Both the position numbers and the translations under genes were made by a program. From contig NC_086097.1 in NCBI RefSeq assembly GCF_963921235.1, positions 57,786,001-57,850,000 of the forward strand: 64,000 bases of DNA. The letters are read 5' to 3'. Each line of letters opens with the position of its first letter. The stretch's first letter is position 1. Below are positions 2,849 through 63,690 of this stretch, piece by piece. The stretch is from Mobula hypostoma. Taxonomy: Eukaryota. The notes under the pieces are model-generated. The model saw nothing but the letters and a program-made list of their open reading frames with translations, was not told where the DNA came from and ran no database searches.

Positions 2849-4370
2849 GTGGTGTTAGGTAAATTGAAGGGATTGAAGGCAGATAAATCCCCAGGGCCAG
2901 ATGGTCTGCATCCCAGAGTGCTTAAGGAAGTGGCCCAAGAAATAGTGGATGCATTAGTGATAATTTTTCAAAACTCGTTAGATTCTGGACTAGTTCCTGA
3001 GGATTGGAGGGTGGCTAATGTAACCCCACTTTTTAAAAAAGGAGGGAGAGAGAAACCGGGGAATTATAGGCCGGTTAGCCTAACGTCGGTGGTGGGGAAA
3101 CTGCTGGAGTCAGTTATCAAGGATGTGATAACAGCACATTTGGAAAGCGGTGAAATGATCGGACAAAGTCAGCATGGATTTGTGAAAGGAAAATCATGTC
3201 TGACGAATCTCATAGAATTTTTTGAGGATGTAACTAGTAGAGTGGATAGGGGAGAACCAGTGGATGTGGTATATTTGGATTTTCAAAAGGCTTTTGACAA
3301 GGTCCCACACAGGAGATTAGTGTGCAAACTTAAAGCACACAGTATTGGGGGTAAGGTATTGGTGTGGGTGGAGAATTGGTTAGCAGACAGGAAGCAAAGA
3401 GTGGGAATAAACGGGACCTTTTCAGAATGGCAGGCGGTGACTAGTGGGGTACCGCAAGGCTCAGTGCTGGGACCCCAGTTGTTTACAATATATATTAATG
3501 ACTTGGATGAGGGAATTAAATGCAGCATCTCCAAGTTTGCGGATGACACGAAGCTGGGTGGCAGTGTTAGCAGTGAGGAGGATGCTAAGAGGATGCAGGG
3601 TGACTTGGATAGGTTGGGTGAGTGGGCAAACTCATGGCAGATGCAATTTAATGTGGATAAATGTGAAGTTATCCACTTTGGTGGCAAAAATAGGAAAACA
3701 GATTATTATCTGAATGGTGGCCGATTAGGAAAAGGGGAGGTGCAACGAGACCTGGGTGTCATTATACACCAGTCATTGAAAGTGGGCATGCAGGTACAGC
3801 AGGCGGTGAAAAAGGCGAACGGTATGCTGGCATTTATAGCGAGAGGATTCGAGTACAGGAGCAGGGAGGTACTACTGCAGTTGTACAAGGCCTTGGTGAG
3901 ACCACACCTGGAGTATTGTGTGCAGTTTTGGTCCCCTAATCTGAGGAAAGACATCTTTGCCATAGAGGGAGTACAAAGAAGGTTCACCAGATTGATTCCT
4001 GGGATGGCAGGTCTTTCATATGAAGAAAGACTGGATGAACTGGGCTTGTACTCGTTGGAATTTAGAAGATTGAGGGGGGATCTGATTGAAACGTATAAGA
4101 TCCTAAAGGGATTGGACAGGCTAGATGCGGGAAGATTGTTCCCGATGTTGGGGAGGTCTAGAACGAGGGGGTCACAGTTTGAGGATAGAGGGGAAGCCTT
4201 TTAGGACCGAGGTTAGGAAAAACTTCTTCACACAGAGAGTGGTGAATCTGTGGAATTCTCTGCCACAGCAAACTGTTGAGGTCAGTTCATTAGCTATGTT
4301 TAAAAGGAAGTTAGATATGGCCCTTGTGGCTACAGGGGTCAGGGGGTATGGAGGGAAGGCTGGGTTCTGA
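2849..4370 (+). pseudogene. CR1 ORF2 reverse transcriptase and C-terminus (1-bp frameshift in the G-run near 4170)
   Basis: 451-aa ORF with RT motifs. The C-terminus GHSLRIEGKPFRTEVRKNFFTQRVVNLWNSLP continues in ORF 4125-4370. The run has 5 G here and 4 G in the sibling copies at ~16227 and ~46875. Confidence 0.9.
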
Positions 4371-11497: not shown

Positions 11498-13190
11498 TCA
11501 GAATCAGAATCAGGTTTATTATCACCGGCATGCAACATGAAATTTGTTAACTTAGCAGCCGCAGTTCAATGCAATACATAATCTAGCAGAGAGAGAAAAA
11601 AAATAATGATAAATAAACAAGAAAATCAATTACGTGTATTGAATGTACAAAAACAGAAATACTGAATATTAAAAAAAGGTGAGGTGGAGTCCAAAGCTTC
11701 AATGTCCACTTAGGAATCGGATGGCAGAGGGGAAGAAGCCGTTCCTGAATCGCTGAGTGTGTGCCTTCAGGCTTCTGTACCTCCTACCTGATGGTAACAG
11801 TGAGAAAAGGGCATGCCCTGAGTGCTGGAGGTCCTTAATAATGGACACTGCCTTTCTGAGACACTGCTTCCTAAAGATGTCCTGGGTACTTTTTAGACTA
11901 GTGCCCAAGATTGAGCTGACTAGATTTACAACCTTCTGCAGCTTCTTTCGGTCCTGTGCAGTAGCCCCTCCATACCAGACAGTGATGCAGCCTGTCAGAA
12001 TGCTCTCCATGGTACAACTATAGAAGTTTTTGAGTGTATTTGTTGACATGCCAAATCTCTTCAACTCCTAATGAAGTATAGCCGCTGTCTTGCCTTCTTT
12101 ATGACTACAGCGATATGTTGGGACCAGGTTAGATCCTCAGAGATCTTGACGCCCAGGAACTTGAAGCTGCTCACTCTCTCCACTTCTGATCCCTCTATGA
12201 GGATTGGTATGTGTTCCTTCGTCTTACCCTTCCTGAAGTCCACAATCAGGTCTTTCCTCTTACTGAGGTTGAGTGCCAGGTTGGTGCTGCAGCACCATTC
12301 CACTAGTTGGTGTATCTCACTCCTGTACGCCCTTTCGCCACCACATGAAATTCTACCAACAATGGTTGTATGGTCAGCAAATTTGTAGATGGTATTTGAG
12401 CTATGCCTAGCCACAAAGTCATGTATATACAGAGAGTACAGCCGTGGGCTAAGCATGCATCCCTGAGGTGCGCTAGTGTTGATCGTCAGCGAAGAGGATA
12501 TGTTATCACCAATCTGTACAGATTGTGGTCTTCCGGTTAGGAAGTCAAGGATCCAATTGCAGAGGGAGGTACAGATGCCCAGGTTCTGCAACTTCTCAAT
12601 CAGGATTGTGGGAATGATGGTATTAAATGCTGAGGTATAATTGATGAACAGCATCCTGATGTAGTTGTCCAGGTGGTCTAAAGCCTTGTGGAGAGCCATT
12701 GAGATTGCGTCTGCCATTGACCTGTTGTGGCAATAGGCAAATTACAATGGGTCTAGGTCCTTGCTGAAGCGGGAGTTCAGACTAGTCATAACCAACCTCT
12801 CAAAGCATTTCATCACTGTCGATGTGAGTGCTACTGGGCGATAGTCATTAAGGCACCCCGCATTATTCTTCTTAGGCACTGGTATAATTGTTGCCTTTTT
12901 GAAGCAAGTGGGAACTTCTGCCCACAGCAGTGAGAGGTTGGTTGGGACAGGTTTTCAGAGCCTTACCAGGTACGCCATCGGGACCTTCTGCCTTGCAAGG
13001 ATTCACTCTCACAATCTAACATCAGCCTCTGAGACAGAGATCACAGGGTCATCAGGTGCAGCAGGGATCTTCACAGCTGTAGTTGTGTTCTCCCTTTCAA
13101 CGTGGGCATAGAAGGCGTTGAGTTCATCTGGTAGTGAAGCATCACTGCCATTCATACTACTGGGTTTCACTTTGTAGGAAGTAATGGCTA
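11498..13190 (-). mobile_element. Rex1/Babar LINE, 5'-truncated, with RT pseudogene
   Basis: ORF 12061-12717 ([37 protein letters not shown]) and ORF 11699-12064. The minus-strand tail is aataaa plus (CTGATT)n at 11498-11520. Confidence 0.92.
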
Positions 13191-31307: not shown

Positions 31308-32065
31308 AGCACACACAAAATGTTGGAGGATCTTAGCAGGCCAGGCAGCATTTATGAAGGGGATTGGACTCCATTCAGGGCCCCAAACAGTCCTTCCAGA
31401 TGAGGCAATACTTCACCTGCTAATCTTTTGGGGTTGTCGACAGTATCCGGTGCTCCCATGCAGCCTCCTCTACATTATTGAGGCCCGACATACAGTAGAT
31501 TGGGGGACCGCTTTCTTGAAAATCTTTGCTCCATCTGCAAAAAGTAGGATTTCCCAGTAGTCAACCATTTTAATTCCAATGCCCATTCCCATTCCGGTAC
31601 GACGGCCCATAGCCTTCTCTACTGCCATGATGAGGTCACTCTCAGGTTGGAGGAACAACATCTCATATTCTTTCTGGGTATCTCCAACCTGATGGTATGA
31701 ACATCAATTTTTCCAACTTCTGGTCATTTTCTCCCTCCCCTTTCCACTATTCTTCAATTCTCCACTCTGGCCTCCCTCATTCCTCTTCTTCTCCTCACCT
31801 GCCTATTACCTCCCCCTCATGCCCCTTTTTCTTTCCTTTCTCTCATGGTCCACTCTTCTATCCTATCAGATTCCTTCTTCTCCAGCCCTTTAACTTTTTC
31901 ACCTATCATCTCTTAGCTTCTTACTTCATCCGCCTCGCCAACCTGACTTCACCTATCACTTTCTGAATTGTAACTCTTTCTCCTCCCCTCACTTTCTTAT
32001 TCTGGCTTCTTCTCCTTCCTTTCTAATCCTGATGATGGGTCTTGGCCAAAAAGATGGTCGGTTTG
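31308..32065 (+). mobile_element. PLE (short inverted 5' arm, degraded GIY-YIG, 3' UTR); its 3' end resumes at 36454-36546
   Basis: 31370-31720 is colinear with 54108-54460. Inverted arm 31310-31360. Probable TSD TTCTGTGAATT (31297-31307) / TTCTGTAAATT (36547-36557). Confidence 0.85.
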
Positions 32066-32144
32066 GATCAGAACTACATGGGAGCTGAATTCTGAAGAAA
32101 CGCAGTTTTTTTAAAAACTTCTTCGAGTGCAAGAAGGACGAGAC

Positions 32145-32190
32145 TGCGCAGGCGCGTGACGTCAACAGGACAGCGCGGAGAGCTTAAAGA
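32145..32190 (+). promoter_or_regulatory. Putative CR1 internal promoter (NRF1-like site abutting a CRE)
   Basis: TGCGCAGGCGCG at 32145-32156, perfect CRE TGACGTCA at 32157-32164, and TTAAA about 20 bp downstream. Confidence 0.5.
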
Positions 32191-32467
32191 GGAGACCACC
32201 CTATACAGCAGGCAGCTGTTGGAGCGGGCAGCAGAGTGTAGGGCTTTGGCTCCAACGGGCTTCGGCGGTAAAGGGGAAGAGGCGAGAGCGAGGCATGGAC
32301 TCTTTCTTTCTCCCCCACCCTTTCACGAATCGGCCCAGACAGGCAGGAACAGCAGGGCTCTCACAGCTAATGGTACGAGCTAACGGTTTAAAAAGTTCCT
32401 CTGTTTAGCGAGGTAAGTGGGTGAGTAGACTTATTTTTCCTGTTTCATTCCTGTAGAATTAGATAGC

Positions 32468-33394
32468 ATGCCTGCAGGGTTAGTGCTTTGTTCAGGGTGT
32501 CAGATGTGGGAATCCTGGGAGACCTCCAGCCTCCCTGATGGTCACATCTGCGCCAGGTGCACCGAGATGCAGCTCCTCAGAGACCGTATTAGGGATGCAC
32601 CTTGTGACCTACTGCTTATCAGGGAGAGTGAAGAGGTGATAGACAGGAGCTACAGGGAGGTAGTCATCCCTAGGCTACAGGGGTCAGAAAACTGGGTCAC
32701 TGTCAAGAGAGGGAAGGGAAATGCCTGGATAGTGGAGAGCACACCTGTGGCTGTCCCCCTCAGCAACAAATATCTTGTTCTGGAGGTTATTGAGGGGGAT
32801 GACCTGAAAGGGGATGCCCACAGTGACCGGGTCTCTGGCACTGAACCTGGCACTGTTGTGCAGGAGAGAAGGAGGGAGAAGAGAAATGCGGTAGTCGTAA
32901 GGGATTCCATAGTCAGGGGAATGGACAGGAGATTCTGTGAGCCTGACAGAGATACCCGCATGGTGTGTTGCCTCCCAGATGCCAGGGTGTGGGATGTCTT
33001 GGATCGGGTCCTGAATATTTTAAAGGGGGAGGGTGAACAGCCAGTTGTCTTGGTACGTGTTGGTACCAATGACATAGATAGGACAAAGGAGGAGGTCCTG
33101 AAGAGAGATTTCCAGGAGTTAGGAAGGAAGCTGAGAAGCAGGATCTCCAGGGTAGTAATCTCGGGATTGCTACCTGTGCCACATGCTAGCGAGGGCAAGA
33201 ATAGTAGGATCAGGCAGATGAATGCGTGGCTGAGAGACTGGTGCAGGGGGCAGGGCTTCAGATCCTTGGATAATTGGGATCTCTTCTGGGGGAAGTATGA
33301 CCTGTTCAAAAAGGACAAGTTACACCTGAACCTGAAGGGGACCAATATCCTGGCGGGAAAGTTTAATAGAGCTGTTAGGGAGGGTTTAAACTAA
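32468..33394 (+). CDS. CR1 ORF1p: N-terminal zinc finger and SGNH/GDSL esterase domain
   Basis: 308-aa intact ORF with CSGC..CARC. SGNH blocks are VVVRDSIVRG (GDS changed to RDS), VGTND and DKLHL. Confidence 0.9.
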   Translation: MPAGLVLCSGCQMWESWETSSLPDGHICARCTEMQLLRDRIRDAPCDLLLIRESEEVIDRSYREVVIPRLQGSENWVTVKRGKGNAWIVESTPVAVPLSNKYLVLEVIEGDDLKGDAHSDRVSGTEPGTVVQERRREKRNAVVVRDSIVRGMDRRFCEPDRDTRMVCCLPDARVWDVLDRVLNILKGEGEQPVVLVRVGTNDIDRTKEEVLKRDFQELGRKLRSRISRVVISGLLPVPHASEGKNSRIRQMNAWLRDWCRGQGFRSLDNWDLFWGKYDLFKKDKLHLNLKGTNILAGKFNRAVREGLN

Positions 33395-36366
33395 TTTGGC
33401 AGGGGCATGGGAACCGGAATGACAGAGCAGAGGAAGGGGAAAACAGAAATAAATCTAAGATAGTGAGCAGTAAAGATATCAGGAAAGACAGGCAGGTGAT
33501 GGGGCAAATTTGTAACCATTGGGATGAGTTGCAGTGCAATAATGTTGCAGTGAAATCAAAGCGAAAAGTACCAAATACTGGTCTTAAGGTGTTATACTTG
33601 AATGCACGCAGCATAAGGAATAAGGTGGATGATCTTGTCGTACAGCTACAGATTGGCAGGTATGATATTGTGGCCATCATTGAGACCTGGCTAAAGGATG
33701 CATGTCTCTGGGAGCTGAACATCCAAGGATATATGGTGTATCGGAAGGATAGGAAGGTAGGCAGAGGGGGAAGTGTGGCTTTATTGGTAAGAAATGATAC
33801 TTAATCATTAGAAAGAGGTGATATAGGATCGGAAGGTGCAGAATCTTTATGGGTTGAGCTAAGAAATTGCAGGGGTAAAAGGACCCTGGTGGCAGTTATT
33901 TATAGGCCTCCAAACAGCTGCAGGGATGTGGACTACAGATTACAAGAGGAAATAGAAAAGGCTTCTCAGAAGGGCAGTGTTATAATAATTGTGGGGGATT
34001 TTAACATGCGAGTGGATTGGGAAAATCAGGTCGGCACTGGATCTCAAGAGAGAGAATTTGTAGAATGCCTGCGAAATGGCTTTTTAGAACAGCTTGTTGT
34101 TGAGCCCACTAGGGGATCGGCTGTACTGGGTTGGGTATTGTGTAATGAACCGGAGGTGATTAGAGAGATTGAGGTGAAGGAACCCTGAGGAGGCAGTGAT
34201 CATAACATGATTGAGTTCACTGTGAAATTTGAAAAAGAGAAGCCGAAATCTGATGTGCCGGTATTTCAGTGGAGTAAAGGAAATTACAGTGGCATGAGAG
34301 AGGAACTGGCCAAAGTTGACTGGAAAGAGACACTGGTGGGAAAGACGGCAGAGCAGCAGTGGCTGGAGTTTATGCAAGAAGTGAGGAAGGTGCAAGACAG
34401 GTATATTCCAAAAAAGAAGAAATTTTCGAATGGAAAAAGGATGCAACTGTGGTTGACAAGAGAAGTCAAAGCCAAAGTTAAAGCAAAGGAGAGTGCATAC
34501 AAGGAAGCAAAAATTAATGGGAAGACAGAGGATTGGGAAGTTTTTAAAACCTTACAAAAGGAAACCAAAAAGGTCATTAAGAGGGAAAAGATTAACTATG
34601 AAAGGAAGCTAGCAAATTATATCAAAGAGGATACTAAAAGCTTTTTCAAGTATATAAAGAGTAAAAGACAGGTGAGAGTAGATATAGGACTGATAGAAAA
34701 TGATGCTGGAGAAATTGTAATGGGAGATAAGGAGTTGGCAGAGGAACTGAATGAGTATTTTGCATCAGTCTTCACTGAGGAAGACATCAGCAGTATACCG
34801 GACACTCAAGGGTGGCAGGGAAGAGAAGTGTGCGCAGTTACAATTACGACAGAGAAAGTACTCTGGAAGCTGAATAGTCTGAAGGTAGATAAATCTCCCG
34901 GATCAGATGGAATGCACCCTCATGTTCTGAAGGAAGTAGCTGCGGAGATTGCAGAGGCCATTAGCGATGATCTTTCAAAAGTCGATAGATTCTGGCATGG
35001 TCCCAGAGGACTGGAAGATTGCAAATGTCACTCCGCTATTTAAGAAGGGGGCAAGGAAGCAAAAAAGAAATTATAGACCTGTTAGTTTGACGTCGGTGGT
35101 TGGGAAGTTGTTGGAGTCGATTGTCAAGGATGAGGTTACAGAGTACCTGGAGGCATATGACAAGATAGGCAGAACTCAGCATGGATTCCTTAAAGGAAAA
35201 TCCTGCTTGACAAACCTATTACAATTTTTTGAGGAAATTATCAGTAGGCTAGACAAGGGAGATGCAGTGGATGTTGTATATTTGGATTTTCAGAAGGCCT
35301 TTGACAAGGTGCCACACATGAGGCTACTTAACAAGATAAGAGCCCATGGAATTACAGGAAAGTTACATACGTGGATAGAGCATTGGCTGATTGGCAGGAA
35401 ACAGAGAGTGGGAATAAAGGGATCCTATTCTGGTTGGCTGTTGGTTACCAGTGGTGTTCCACAGGGGTCCGTGTTGGGGCCGCTTCTTTTTATATTGTAC
35501 ATCAGCGATTTGAATTATGGAATAGATGGCTTTGTGGCTAAGTTTGCTGATGATACGAAGATAGGTGGAAGGGCCGGTAGTGCTGAGGAAACGGAGAGTC
35601 TGCAGAGAGACTTGGATAGATTGGAAGAATGGGCAAAGAAGTGGCAAATGAAGTGCAATGTTGGAAAGTGTATGGTTATGCACTTTGGCAGAAAAAATAA
35701 ACGGGCAGACTACTATTTAAATGGGGAAAGAATTCAAAGTTCGGAGATGCAACGGGACTTGGGAGTCCTCGTACAGGATACCCTTAAGGTTAACTTCCAG
35801 GTTGAGTCAGTAGTGAAGAAGGCGAATGCAATGTTGGCATTCATTTCTAGAGGAATAGAGTATAGGAGCAGAGATGTGATGTTGAGGCTCTATAAAGCGC
35901 TGGTGAGACCTCACGTGGAGTACTGTGGGCAGTTTTGGTCTCCTGATTTACGTTGGAGAGGGTACAGAGAAGATTCACTGGAATGATTCCGGGAATGAGA
36001 GGGTTAACATATGAGGAACGTTTGTCCGCTCTTGGACTGTATTCCTTGGAGTTTAGAAGAATGAGGGGAGACCTCATAGAAACATTTCAAATGTTGAAAG
36101 GCATGGACAGAGTGGATGTGGCAAAGTTGTTTCCCATGATGGGGGAGTCTAGTATGAGAGGCCATGAATTAAGGATTGAAGGGCGCCCATTCAGAACAGA
36201 AATGGGAGAAATTTTTTTTAGTCAGAGGGTGGTGAATCTATGGAATTTGTTGCCACGGGCAGCAGCGGAGGCCAAGTCATTGGGTGTATTTAAGGCAGAG
36301 ATTGATAGGTATCTGAGTAGCCAGGGCATCAAAGGTTATGGTGAGAAGGCGGGGGAGTGGGACTAA
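33391..36366 (+). pseudogene. CR1 ORF2 (APE endonuclease and RT) with stops and frameshifts
   Basis: YLNARSIRNK, IETWL, YRPP, GDFN (APE) and YLDFQKAFDKV, KFADD (RT). Stops at 33804 and 34188, frameshifts near 34960 and 35950. Confidence 0.92.
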
Positions 36367-36453
36367 ATGGGAGAATGGATCAACTCATGATAAAATGGCG
36401 GAGCAGACTCGATGGGCGAATGGCCGGCTTCTGCTCCTTTGTCTTATGGTCTT

Positions 36454-36546
36454 TATGTTCCTCCATAGATGCTGCTTGACCTGCTGAGTTCCTCCAGCAT
36501 TTTGTGTGTGTTGCTCTGGATTTCTAGCCTCTGCAGAGACCGTGTG
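36454..36546 (+). mobile_element. PLE 3' terminus and tail (continuation of 31308-32065)
   Basis: ccatagatgctgcttgacctgctgagttcctccagcattttgtgtgtgttgctctggatttctagcctctgcaga. Confidence 0.85.
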
Positions 36547-43565: not shown

Positions 43566-43879
43566 TCTCCGCAATGCTGCAGTTCAGTGATCGACAAAAA
43601 AAGTGCTTGACGATATACCATTTAAAATGTCTATTTCATTTATATTTCTCCTTCTGAAAAACCCTTACTTTGAGTATTTTGCCTGTTGTGAGCAGTACGA
43701 TGACTGTGAGCAAATTCTTACTTGGTTTCATGTTAATCCAACTTGTCACCAAAGCTGAAGACACAAAAGTCTGCAGGTGCTGGAATCTGGAGCTAATAAG
43801 AACTCAATAGGTCAAACAGCATCTGCAAAGGCAAAGGAACAGTTGTCATTTCGGATAGGGGGTGAAGTCAGATTTGTAT

Positions 43880-45075
43880 AGACAAAGGCGAGCAAGTGGA
43901 TGTTGTTTACTTGGATTTTCAGAAGGCCTTTGACAAGGTGCCACACATGAGGCTACTTAACAGGATAGGAGCCCATGGTGTTACAGGAAAGAATCTGGCA
44001 TGGAGAGAAGATTGGCTGATTGGCAGGAGGAAAAGAGTGGGAATAAAGGGAGCCTTTTTTGGTTGGCTGTTAGTCACTAGTGGTTCGCACAAGGGTCGAT
44101 GTTGGGACTGATTCTTTTCATGTTGTACGTCAGTGATTTGGATGATGGAATTGATGGCTTTGTGGCCAAGTTTACAGATGATATGAAGGTAGGTGGAGGA
44201 GCAGGCAGTGTTGAGGAAGCAGGGAGTCTGCAGAAGGGCATAGATTAGGACCATAGTAAAGACATGGCAGATGGAATATAGTGTAGGGAAGTGTATAGTC
44301 ATGCACTTTTGTAGAGGGAACAAAGGTATAGACTATTTCCTAAATGGGGAGAAAATTCAAAAATCAGAGGTGCAAAAGGATTCCCTAAAGGTTAACTTGC
44401 AGGTTGCGTCTGTGTTAAGGAAGGCAAATGCAATGTTAGCACTCATTTTGAGAGGACCAAAACATAAATGCAAGGATGTAATGCTGAGGCTTTATAAGAC
44501 ATTGGTCAAACCACATTTGAAGAGTAGTGAGAACTTTTGAGCTATTTTGCTGAGAAAAGATGTACTGGCATTGGAGAGAGAAGGTTCAGAGGAGGTTCTC
44601 GAGAATCATTCTGTGAATGAAAGAGTTAACATATGAGGAGTGCTTGATGGCTCTGGGCCTGTACTCACTGGAGTTTAGAAGAATGAGGGGGATCTTACTG
44701 AAACCTAACAAATATTGAAAGGCCTAGACAGAGAGGATGTGGAGAGGATGATTCCTAGAGTGGGTGAGTCTAAGACCAGAGCAGCCTCAGAATAGACAGA
44801 TGTCCATTTAGAACAGAAATGAGGAGGAATTTCTTTAGCCCGTGTGTAGTGAATTTGTGGAATTCCTTGCCACAGATGGCTGTGGAGGCTAAGTCATTGG
44901 GTATATTTAAAGTGTAGTTTGTTGGTTTCTTGATTCGTCAGGGCATCAAAGGTTATAGGGAGAAGGCTGGAGGGTGGGATTGAGAGGGATAATAAGTCAG
45001 CCATAATGGAATGGTGGAGCTGGCCAGATGGGTTGAATGGCCTATTTCTGATCCTGTCTCATGGTGTTATGGTCT
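43880..45075 (+). mobile_element. 5'-truncated CR1, flanked by inverted PLE terminus halves (43760-43875 minus; 45076-45160 plus)
   Basis: DVVYLDFQKAFDKVPHMRLLNRI, similar to 35250-36453. Tail tcatggtgttatggtct. Confidence 0.9.
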
Positions 45076-46571: not shown

Positions 46572-47687
46572 ATAGAAACATAGAAACATAGAAAATAGGT
46601 GCAGGAGTAGGCCATTCGGCCCTTCAAGCCTGCACCGCCATTTATTATGATCATGGCTGATCATCCAACTCAGAACCCCGCCCCAGCCTTCCCTCCATAA
46701 CTCCTGACCCCCGTAGCCACAAGGGCCATATCTAACTCCCTCTTAAATATAGCCAATGAACTGGCCTCAACAGTTTCCTGTGGCAGAGAATTCCACAGAT
46801 TCACCACTCTCTGTGTGAAGATGTTTTTCCTAATCTCGGTCCTAAAAGGCTTCCCCTCTATCCTCAAACGGTGGCCCCTCGTTCTGAACTTCCCCAACAT
46901 CGGGAACAATCTTCCTGCATCTAGCCTGTCCAATCCCTTTAGGATCTTATACGTTTCAATCAGATCCCCCCTCAATCTTCTAAATTCCAACGAGTACAAG
47001 CCCAGTTCATCCAGTCTTTCTTCATATGAAAGTCCTGCCATCCCAGGAATCAATCTGGTGAACCTTCTTTGTACTCCCTCTATGGCAAAGATGTCTTTCC
47101 TCAGATTAGGGGACCAAAACTGCACACAATACTCCAGGTGTGGTCTCACCAAGGCCTTGTACAACTGCAGTAGTACCTCCCTGCTCCTGTACTCGAATCC
47201 TCTCGCTATAAATGCCAGCATACCATTCGCCTTTTTCACCGCCTGCTGTACCTGCATGCCCACTTTCAATGACTGGTGTATAATGACACCCAGGTCTTGT
47301 TGCACCTCCCCTTTTCCTAATCGGCCACCATTCAGATAATAATCTGTTTTCCTATTTTTGCCACCAAAGTGGATAACTTCACATTTATCCACATTAAATT
47401 GCATCTGCCATGAATTTGCCCACTCACCCAACCTATCCAAGTCACCCTGTATCCTCTTAGCATCCTCCTCACAGCTAACACTGCCACCCAGCTTCGTGTC
47501 ATCCGCAAACTTGGAGATGCTGCATTTAATTCCCTCATCCAAGTCATTAATATATATTGTAAACAACTGGGGTCCCAGCACTGAGCCTTGCGGTACCCCA
47601 CTAGTCACTGCCTGCCATTCTGAAAAGGTCCCGTTTATTCCCACTCTTTGCTTCCTATCTGCCAACCAATTCTCCACCCACACCAAT
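46572..47687 (-). mobile_element. Young 5'-truncated CR1 with open ORF2 C-terminus (338 aa)
   Basis: Nearly identical to 3357-4468, with (ATGTTTCT)n tail. Possible TSD ATGCCTTT / ATGTCTTT. Confidence 0.95.
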
Positions 47688-48224
47688 GTCTTTCATGATA
47701 ACACTTGGGGGTCTACTAGGCCTGCTATCTGCCACCTTGCTGGCAGTGGTTCTCTCGCTGGATCTTATGCCTGATTCTTTGTGGACCTTCACAGATTGCT
47801 GAAGATTTTCCTGGAGTATGTGGTCCTATATATTCCAAATGCCAAGCATAAAACCGCTTCTACAAAAGATATGGTGTCCTTTTCCTTTGACATGCTAGCC
47901 TCCACGGTCTATAGATTTGGAAGCTTAAAAAAATTCATTTTCCAAATACAAAAAGGAAGGAACCTTAATGAATTAAAAACTGGCAAGTGGGATTAATTTT
48001 CTTTTAGGTTTGCAGGCATCAACTTGATGAGGCAAATGAATATTCTAAGTCTAACCTTTTTCAGTACACACCGAGTGAAATCTCAAGCAATAACCCACAC
48101 CATGATTCTAACTCTTCTGAAAGAAGTGCACCAACGGTACATTTAGGGTTGCTTCATTGCTGGTTAGTGGAGCCAGGTGTATGAGATCTTCAAGAGATGT
48201 GCTTTGATAATAGCACATTATCAA

Positions 48225-48845
48225 TAGTTCAAATGTCATTAGAAACGGGGATGGTGCTGGAGGATTGGCGTATTGCTCATGTTGTTTCATTGTTTAAAAA
48301 GGGTTCTCAGAGTAAACCTAGCAATTATCGGCCTGTGAGTTTGACGTCAGTGGTGGGTAAATTGATGGAAAGTATTCTTAGAGATGGTATATATAATTGT
48401 CTAGATAGACAGGGTCTGATTAGGAGCAGTCAACATGGATTTGCGCGGGAAAGGTCATGTTTGACAAATCTTATTGAATTTTGAGAGGGGACTTAGTAGA
48501 GGTATTTAAAATTATGAAGGGGATAGATAGACTTGACGCGGATAGGCTTTTTCCATTGAGAGTGGGGGAGATTGAAACAAGAGGACATGAGTTGAGAGTT
48601 AGAGGGCAAAAGTTTAGGGGTAACATGAGGAGGAACTTCTTTACTCAGAGAGTGGTAGCTGTGTGGAACGAGGCAGGTTTGATATTGTCATTTAAAGTAA
48701 AATTGGATAGCTATATGGACAGGAAAGGAATGGAGGGTTATGGGCTGAGTGCAGGTCGGTGAGACTAGGTGAGAGTAAGCGTTCGGCATGGATTAGAAGG
48801 GCCGAGATAGCCTGTTTCCATGCTGTAATTGTTATATGGTTATAA
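48225..48845 (+). mobile_element. CR1 fragment with large internal deletion
   Basis: EDWRIAHVVSLFKKG..SCLTNLIEF is joined directly to RGDLVEVFKIMKG at ~48482. Confidence 0.88.
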
Positions 48846-62180: not shown

Positions 62181-62234
62181 GTGTTCTAATCTCCTTTTTT
62201 CATATAGATTCTTATTTCAGCTTGCTTTATATTT

Positions 62235-63690
62235 GAAAACTTCACTCATCCAGGCTGCTGTCCCCACATGCTTCAAATCAGCCAACATTATCCCTGTACC
62301 AGTGAACTCTACACCTTCAGAACTGAACAACTACTGCCCAGTGGCACTGAGGCCAATCATCAAGAAGTGCTTTGAATGGCTGGTAATGGCACACATCAAA
62401 AACTCCATTCCTGCCACATTGGACTCTCACCAATATGCTGATCGCCAGAACTGCTTGTCAATAGATGCCATAGCATCTGTCATGCACCTGTCCCTGACAC
62501 ATCTAGAAAACAATGACACTTATGTCAGAAAGCTCTTTCTGGATTTCAGTTCGGCATACAACACTGTTATCCCACAGACCTTGGTGAACAAACTCTTACT
62601 GCTCAGTCTAAATACACCATTGTCCAACTGCCTAACCAACAGACCTCAGACAGTCAGGATGCACAACTGTTCCTCCCTCCCCATCACTCTCAACACAGGC
62701 GCTCTCCAGCGCTCTGTGCTCAGCCTATTGCTCTAAACTCTGCTCACAAATGACTGCACAGCCAAACACCCGAGTAATCACACTGTCAGGTTCACTGATG
62801 ATACGACAATGGTGGGGCTCATCACACACAATAAGGAGATGGTTTACAGAGAGGATGTGAAACAACTTGAGGCCTGGGTCCAGCAAATAACCTCTTCCTC
62901 AATGTCAACACTAAAGGAGATGGTTATCAACTTCAGGAGAACTCACACCATTCACATCCCTCTTTACATTGGCTGCACAGAAGTTTAAAACACCTGGGAG
63001 TGCGCATCTCGCACAATCTTTCACCATCCCAGAACATATTCCACATAATTAGGAAAGCTCACCAATGCTTTTACTTTCTGAGGACGCTGGAGAGAACTGG
63101 ACTATGTACATCTATACTCATGCCATTCTACAGAAGCACAACAGGGAGTCTCCTAATGAGCTGCATCTCTGCACGGCACCTGAACAACAGGAAGACTCTA
63201 CAAGGGGTAGTCAAAACTGCCCAATGCATCACCGGCACCAGCTTACTCACCGCCGGGGACATATATACAGACAGGTGCCGGCAAAGGATTCCACCCATTC
63301 TTCTCATGGGCTGTTTGTCCCACTCCCACCAGGGAGGAGGCTACATAGCATACATACCAGGCCAACCACTCAACGACAGTTACTTTCCCCAAGCAGTAAA
63401 GTTCATCAACACCTCCCACCCACTAACCCACACCTCCACATTCCCAACTACCACTGCTTACTATTTCCTGTCAGCCATCTCATATACAGACACTCTTGTG
63501 CCTAGCGTCATTTTACAGATAATCTATGTACATAAGTTATCTTAGTATTTATACTTACTGTGTTTTTTTGTTATTGTGTTCCTTACCTTATTGTATTTTT
63601 TTGTGCCACATTAGATCCAGAGTAACAGTTACTTCATTCTCCTTTACACTTGTGTACTAGAAATGACATTTAACAATGTTGAATCTTGAG
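62235..63690 (+). mobile_element. Rex1/Babar LINE, 5'-truncated RT pseudogene
   Basis: VPTCFKSANIIPVP..NNYCPVALRPIIKKCFEWLV..LFLDFSSAYNTV, then RFTDDTT. Tail ttgaatcttga. Confidence 0.9.

Follow-up and report, generated by a model that had tools for sequence, protein, structure and literature searches.

CR1, described as more abundant in the chicken genome than any other repeat (PMC11835228), is a long interspersed nuclear element (LINE), and the way in which bicistronic LINE RNAs make the protein of their second open reading frame (ORF) has been called unclear (PMC3708506; PMC5009743). Closest to the present case is the canonical vertebrate CR1 surveyed in PMC13343379, which has the same esterase ORF1, the same ORF2 encoding an APE endonuclease and a reverse transcriptase (RT) and, in the library entries, the same ORF1/ORF2 junction. 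The survey's main text contains none of the terms 'frameshift', 'slippery', 'overlap' or 'start codon', and does not treat the translation of ORF2. Two other non-long-terminal-repeat (non-LTR) elements of APE type, Dictyostelium TRE5-A and TRE3-A, are stated in a review legend to require a -1 frameshift for ORF2 (PMC5911963), as is proposed here, but they belong to another lineage and have another ORF1. Drosophila HeT-A is also said to need a frameshift (PMC5009743); it differs in that the shift lies inside gag and the element has no RT. Here, we analysed a CR1 copy lying in a 64,000-nucleotide stretch of the Mobula hypostoma genome (the window; assembly GCF_963921235.1, contig NC_086097.1, positions 57,786,001 to 57,850,000, forward strand), whose ORF1 ends on the slippery heptamer T_TTA_AAC.

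The literature searched on frameshifting in CR1 and other non-LTR elements contained no proposal for CR1; the 1997 CR1 papers, the Repbase reports and the primary papers on SART1 and DRE lie outside it and may contain one. The searched part of a 2016 review of frameshifting (PMC5009743) has no mention of 'CR1', and that of a report on chicken (PMC11835228) mentions frameshifting only for retroviruses. By comparison across families and hosts, the junction is a genuine signal of recoding type, deeply conserved, in an element family that is already known. We put the probability at about 0.85 that programmed -1 slippage on U_UUA_AAC is the route to the ORF2 product, alone or with a second, AUG-dependent route in some families.

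A phased slippery heptamer at the end of ORF1

ORF1 of the window element (308 aa, + strand, 32468-33394; ATG at 32468) consists of a Cys-rich N-terminal part and an SGNH/GDSL esterase, and its C-terminus reads ...REGLN. The esterase was matched by PF13472 (E 2e-10), and a profile of this ORF1 and 38 relatives matched PDB 4c1b, an 'ORF1-encoded protein' that is a retrotransposon ORF1 esterase (E 8e-44). A preliminary description of this DNA had placed the heptamer on the last two codons of ORF1, and direct inspection of the window agreed: ORF1 ends GGT TTA AAC TAA, with TTTAAAC at 33385-33391 in X_XXY_YYZ phase, adjoining the TAA stop at 33392-33394. The stop occupied the same place in 17/17 representatives. 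The -1 frame is the endonuclease frame, as the same description had it; it begins FKLIWQG... and has no stop between 33379 and 33801, a span that includes the start of the endonuclease with its YLNARS and ETW motifs. Between the heptamer and the first endonuclease motif (33385-33600) it forms a linker of 72 codons with no stops, compared with 5 and 9 stops in the other two frames.

One heptamer in one element is not informative by itself. Within 32001-36500, 9 of the 19 overlapping XXXYYYZ words share the ORF1 phase, so that a lone in-phase heptamer is unsurprising; the case therefore rests on conservation at the end of ORF1 across families. The suggested transframe peptides EGLKLIWQG and EGFKLIWQG were not retained. 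Under the standard tandem-slippage model, the junction peptide of family A, to which the window element belongs, would instead be EGLN-LIWQG.

Conservation within the Mobula hypostoma genome

A first look at the element's own genome gave 4262 candidates for the junction region, and the copies analysed fell into seven families (A, B, C, E, F, G, H) once 13 loci duplicating counted places had been dropped. TTTAAAC was found at the predicted end of ORF1 in 125/147 copies, a count drawn from the best-scoring copies of each family and not from random samples. This included 33/34 copies in family A, 32/32 in B, 18/21 in E, 24/26 in F, 2/3 in G and 1/1 in H. The -1 phase was kept in 91 of the 109 copies with an endonuclease anchor. 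The preliminary description had named conservation and phase of the heptamer over copies as the check on its proposal, and both were thus borne out.

Family B is very young: among four of five full-length copies, the mutual differences amount to 2-4 of 3941 bases. It has probably been active recently. One of its loci (L128:1183-5123, G000:C5:61314682 onward) carries an intact ORF1 and an intact ORF2, with at least 127 ORF1 matches at 98-100%. The junctions of family E (L149 and other loci) have an ORF2-frame AUG that overlaps heptamer and stop (TAATG), such that frameshift and stop-start signals coincide. The N-terminal part of the family E ORF2 is 88% identical to that of family B whilst ORF1 differs, a pattern that hints at recombination near the junction.

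Constraint on the heptamer is at the nucleotide level

To separate constraint on RNA or DNA from constraint on protein, codon usage was compared across 15 representatives (7 own families, 7 bird-type and the metagenome locus L033) with a mean amino-acid identity of 39%. The final Leu was encoded by TTA in 15/15, compared with 12% of other Leu codons, and the final Asn by AAC in 15/15, compared with 32% elsewhere. The base before TTA was T in 14/15 (compared with 26%), and this held under Gly, Thr, Ala, Asp, Cys and Ser alike. None of 20 other conserved columns (at least 13/15 identical residues) used a single codon, and pairs of representatives agreed in codon at 43% of the residues that they shared. 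The joint chance amounts to ~0.01 for each independent lineage; as the lineages share descent, no overall P is given. Judged from these codons, the constraint at the junction is on nucleotides and not on protein, as a requirement of the protein cannot set TTA, AAC and the T before them.

This bears directly on a rival explanation in which the terminal Leu-Asn serves the esterase, or the motif is some other DNA or RNA element such as a binding site, with ORF2 made from its own downstream AUG. Such a reading draws on the strong conservation of LN in the proteins and on the ATG at 33499 in family A. It is contradicted by the codon data, by a clade of 33 proteins of the same fold that lack the LN ending, by the match to 4c1b, which ends at profile position 307, ahead of LN, and by family B, which has no AUG until codon 207. 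We regard it as largely refuted and very improbable.

ORF2 lacks a usable start codon in intact families

In four of the five full-length family B copies, the -1 frame runs for 1004 codons from the heptamer to the end of RT. Its first Met is codon 207, behind the endonuclease motifs NARS (78), ETW (105) and YRPP (178) and just ahead of GDFN (208). A profile search of solved structures aligned these motifs with the L1 endonuclease, whereas the family B ORF2 as a single-sequence query found no match there. A product started from the codon-207 AUG loses the PF03372 match. In family F the first Met stands at about codon 126 of the -1 frame. In neither of these two families, therefore, can the endonuclease arise by initiation at an AUG. 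Whilst B and F have no AUG from which ORF2 could be produced, the same cannot be said of families A, E and G or of some bird types.

The first Asn of the endonuclease lay at 11 different distances from the heptamer, between 117 and 285 nt, and the distance was a multiple of 3 in 15/15 representatives with a valid anchor; the anchor of L051 (39 nt) was dropped as a false match, and L111 and L046 had none. The -1 frame was free of stops in 13/15 anchored representatives, compared with 3-12 stops in each of the other frames. Together, the multiple-of-3 distances and the open -1 frame indicate that the linker is coding from the heptamer onwards.

Conservation beyond this genome

A metagenome scan yielded 37 loci, among which L058 was broken inside ORF1 and 21 stopped short of the ORF1 end. 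Ten had a junction of what we take to be the bird CR1 type, and all ten carried TTTAAAC and a stop. L033 had G_TTA_AAC and a stop, with the -1 frame open into the endonuclease, and in L035, L038, L047 and L048 the ORF1 end had no heptamer. A first triplet of G_UU(A) is reported as tolerated in equine arteritis virus (PMC5009743).

Of the CR1-group library entries in PMC13343379, 23 had TTTAAAC followed by a stop within the first 400 letters of each entry, the part covered here; ~18 of these 23, a count without a denominator, were judged by eye to be ORF1/ORF2 junctions and 5 lay elsewhere. Their hosts were alligator, crocodile, bearded dragon, bullfrog, coelacanth, bowfin, halosaur, chimaera, sharks and rays (PMC13343379), and named LN-ending ORF1 proteins include turtle and snake. 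When contigs from the runs of four other organisms were mapped to the stretch at 80% likeness, the two bins covering 33378-33409 were the deepest of all, depth here being summed contig depth and not copy number. A shark-type CR1 ORF1 (P0021) is filed as Pseudomonas aeruginosa on a 4 kb contig and is likely contamination.

Other endings among esterase-type ORF1 proteins

We further compared terminal residues in the 157 proteins, out of 218 counted, whose sequence extends to the end of the esterase, 30 cluster members having been dropped. LN endings accounted for 74/157 and GN endings for 17/157. The GN group, a distant group with an esterase ORF1, ends QGN, KGN, VGN or AGN after a variable stretch (P0095, P0106, P0109, P0115, P0117, P0119, P0126, P0172, P0186, P0231-P0247). 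In the informative cases, the residue before LN belonged to the class with pyrimidine-ending codons in 16/17, and the residue before GN to the purine-ending class in 14/14, although related proteins have these labels in common. This split matches what T_TTA_AAC and G_GGA_AAC require and therefore fits a swap of heptamer class; both, together with A_AAA_AAC, are listed among the shiftiest heptamers (PMC5009743). No match to the DNA of the GN group was found in viral contigs or plasmids, and genome contigs gave one weak bacterial match. A single cluster (P0134) ends SKN, which A_AAA_AAC would fit, and P0140, P0200 and P0239 end FFR.

A sister group without the heptamer was also apparent, in which TGA is followed by C (L035:1079-1309, L038:1815-2300, L047:1921-1960). 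In L035 (TGA-CTAG) and L038 the endonuclease continues in the same frame behind the single TGA, L047 being broken, and L035 has no Met in the 72 codons ahead of the endonuclease domain. P0187, which has the look of this group, likewise continues in frame. Proteins resembling the sister group formed a clade of 33 rows, none ending LN, in a tree made by a quick method from an alignment that includes the terminal residues. We presume UGA-CUAG to be a readthrough context; it was not found in PMC8310308. The group is thus a candidate for stop-codon readthrough and, if this is right, two recoding routes would lead to the same fusion.

A conserved G tract downstream of the stop

Downstream of the heptamer, the conserved feature is a G5-NN-G3 tract (33402-33411 in the window, starting 10 nt 3' of the heptamer), a candidate stimulator. 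Across 17 gapless junctions, G occupied positions +10 to +14 in 15, 17, 16, 16 and 16 sequences, and +17 to +19 in 15, 16 and 13. The preliminary description had outlined a longer run, GG-ca-GGGG-cat-GGG-aacc-GG. Its start 6 nt past the heptamer stands, whereas the C at 33406 proved to be a minority variant in place of G (2/30 copies) and other families do not retain the final GG. Within family A, 19/30 copies read exactly TTTGGCAGGGGGATGGGAACCGGAAT, and most have GGGGG-AT-GGG.

The G-quadruplex proposed as stimulator is not supported. Reported quadruplex stimulators of frameshifting consist of four G3 tracts 6-8 nt after the heptamer (PMC3919603); four such tracts were never present here, only G5-NN-G3 being conserved, and a two-tier quadruplex was predicted in 7/18 sequences, the window copy not among them. 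Part of the G-tract conservation could reflect a Gly-x-Gly motif in the -1 frame. Between a G tract bound by protein on one side, and a weak quadruplex or coding motif on the other, we consider the odds about even.

Slippage of a polymerase (RNA polymerase II or RT) in T3A3 or in the G run, adding a base and so fusing the frames in RNA or DNA, would be another way of joining the ORFs. G-run length does differ among copies, and one annotated ray protein (P0033) reads from ORF1 in frame into ORF2 (...REGFKLNLQG...), but the G run is 3' of the ORF1 stop, where an added G cannot bypass it, and intact copies retain the -1 layout. T3A3 is, moreover, too short for known polymerase slippage. We consider this explanation highly unlikely; P0033 itself is probably one mutated copy or a gene-model join.

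Weighing slippage against reinitiation

Several observations weigh against slippage as the route to ORF2. In the old and decayed family C, the heptamer was at the predicted place in just 15/30 copies and its phase was kept in 4/9. The codon figures come from representatives that were chosen from better-kept copies and are related by descent. The apparent swap to G_GGA_AAC in the distant group, a strong lead, is seen at the protein level only. As for a stimulator, predictions without pseudoknots on the 90 nt past the stop of 18 sequences gave no shared fold (z -1.8 to +2.4), no canonical stimulator of stem-loop or pseudoknot type was found 5-9 nt downstream, and the G tract had no homologous best long-range partner over three families. 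Start codons are also available in places. Family A has an in-frame ATG ahead of the endonuclease (33499-33501, codon 39 of the -1 frame; 29/30 copies; absent from other families), so that a fusion is not compelled by the sequence when this family is considered by itself. In family E the ORF2 frame contains TAATG, which is the SART1 coupling motif, and 4/10 bird-type junctions have an ATG at codon 5. Family B offers the near-cognate codons TTG (6), GTG (38) and CTG (72) ahead of the domain, and mammalian L1 ORF2 is reported to tolerate loss of its AUG (PMC1965478).

The start-codon observations feed the rival in which ribosomes terminate at the ORF1 stop and reinitiate, either in the SART1-like manner at UAAUG or in the L1-like, AUG-independent manner, with TTTAAAC, stop and G tract as the signal. 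To the ATG at codon 5 and the TAATG of family E can be added the TAATG of some shark library entries (PMC13343379), the use of UAAUG by SART1 (PMC3708506) and the L1 result above, and a start near the stop would likewise explain the open linker. However, TAATG occurs in 1/7 own-genome families (the window has TAATTT), and families A, B, C, F, G and H have neither an AUG nor a shared near-cognate codon near the stop. UGGGA, the upstream reinitiation motif of caliciviruses, had no fixed place and was absent within 130 nt in 7/9 bird-type loci. Reinitiation also leaves unexplained a textbook heptamer in exact phase and the G-N swap with its matching codon class, and we judge it improbable.

A milder alternative is that both routes work: every family would use slippage, and A, E and some bird types would in addition restart translation at an AUG close by. 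AUGs at codons 4-5 do arise in separate groups; those codons nevertheless vary freely among sister families (ATG, TCG, TGG, GTG), as linker drift would have it. This combination appears unlikely, if less so than reinitiation alone. Slippage remains the preferred reading. The fusion of ORF1 to ORF2 that had been proposed for the window element is strongly supported by comparison, with heptamer and phase conserved and with intact families lacking an AUG ahead of the endonuclease motifs, but the window copy itself cannot make a full ORF2.

The window copy and its surroundings

The element occupies 32062-36453 (+ strand), is near full-length but decayed, and is 93.7% identical to another copy across that span. 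Its ORF2 is of the APE endonuclease-then-RT type, and the body of this frame (33601-36366) is broken by stops at 33802 and 34186 and by frame changes near 34960 and 35950. The closest named proteins are from rays and sharks. We filed the element as an esterase-type CR1 by its anatomy, and by eye its junction resembles ray and shark library entries named CR1. Within its ray CR1 family this copy is dead and, because its ORF2 is broken, it carries the candidate frameshift signal only as a relic.

Six further 5'-truncated, RT-bearing LINE fragments were present in the window (2954-3946, 43878-44555, 47099-47692, 48224-48487, 12070-12915 and 62221-62940), with 25-66% identity to the RT of the element; none of the six gave an ORF1 match. 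A pyrimidine-rich repeat just 5' of the element (31632-31907) matches the flank of L143 in the opposite orientation at 72% identity.

Discussion

Under the slippage reading, ribosomes at the end of ORF1 would have UUA in the P site and AAC in the A site. Most would presumably terminate at the stop and release ORF1 protein, whilst a minority would slip back one base to UUU AAA and continue in ORF2, giving a fusion of ORF1, linker, APE and RT of ~1310 residues in family B. The pause would probably come from the adjacent stop and from the unstructured G5-NN-G3 at +10, perhaps acting as a protein-binding site rather than as an RNA fold. A wider generalisation is conceivable: esterase-ORF1 LINEs as a whole might make RT as an ORF1-ORF2 fusion by means of three exchangeable recoding signals, namely slippage on U_UUA_AAC for vertebrate CR1, slippage on G_GGA_AAC for the distant group and readthrough of UGA-C for the L2-like sister group of fish. 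The driver of slippage in CR1 would then be a protein on the G tract 10 nt downstream rather than an RNA fold, possibly ORF1 protein or a host G-tract binder, making the signal a G-rich counterpart of the viral one described below. We offer this tentatively and think it rather less probable than not.

CR1 is spread through jawed vertebrates and, if -1 frameshifting is true of it, its RT would be a gag-pol-like fusion with an esterase. The start of CR1 ORF2 would then be mis-annotated in gene and repeat models, engineered CR1 assays would need the native junction, and the signal would be a very widespread natural frameshift signal without evident RNA structure. Family B, with its intact and almost identical copies, allows a direct test of this reading.

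Amongst known systems, the arrangement is that of coronavirus 1a/1b and retroviral gag-pol, in which an upstream structural ORF is followed by a downstream enzyme ORF in the -1 frame; infectious bronchitis virus uses the same U_UUA_AAC heptamer (PMC5009743). Compared with these systems, the CR1 junction has no detected stem-loop or pseudoknot 5-9 nt downstream, its 0-frame stop adjoins the heptamer, and CR1 encodes no protease to cut the fusion. SART1, with its UAAUG coupling, and mammalian L1, with reinitiation, face the same bicistronic LINE problem, and UAAUG is present in family E, whereas most families here have no AUG near the stop and all have the phased slippery heptamer. The -2/-1 frameshift in nsp2 of the virus causing porcine reproductive and respiratory syndrome depends on an unstructured C-rich motif at a 10-nt spacer, bound by nsp1beta/PCBP, which drives the shift (PMC4937337). 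CR1 differs in having a G-rich rather than a C-rich motif and another heptamer but, by analogy only, it is like that virus in pairing a lack of obvious structure with a motif that is short, conserved and of low complexity and that follows after a spacer of 10 nt.

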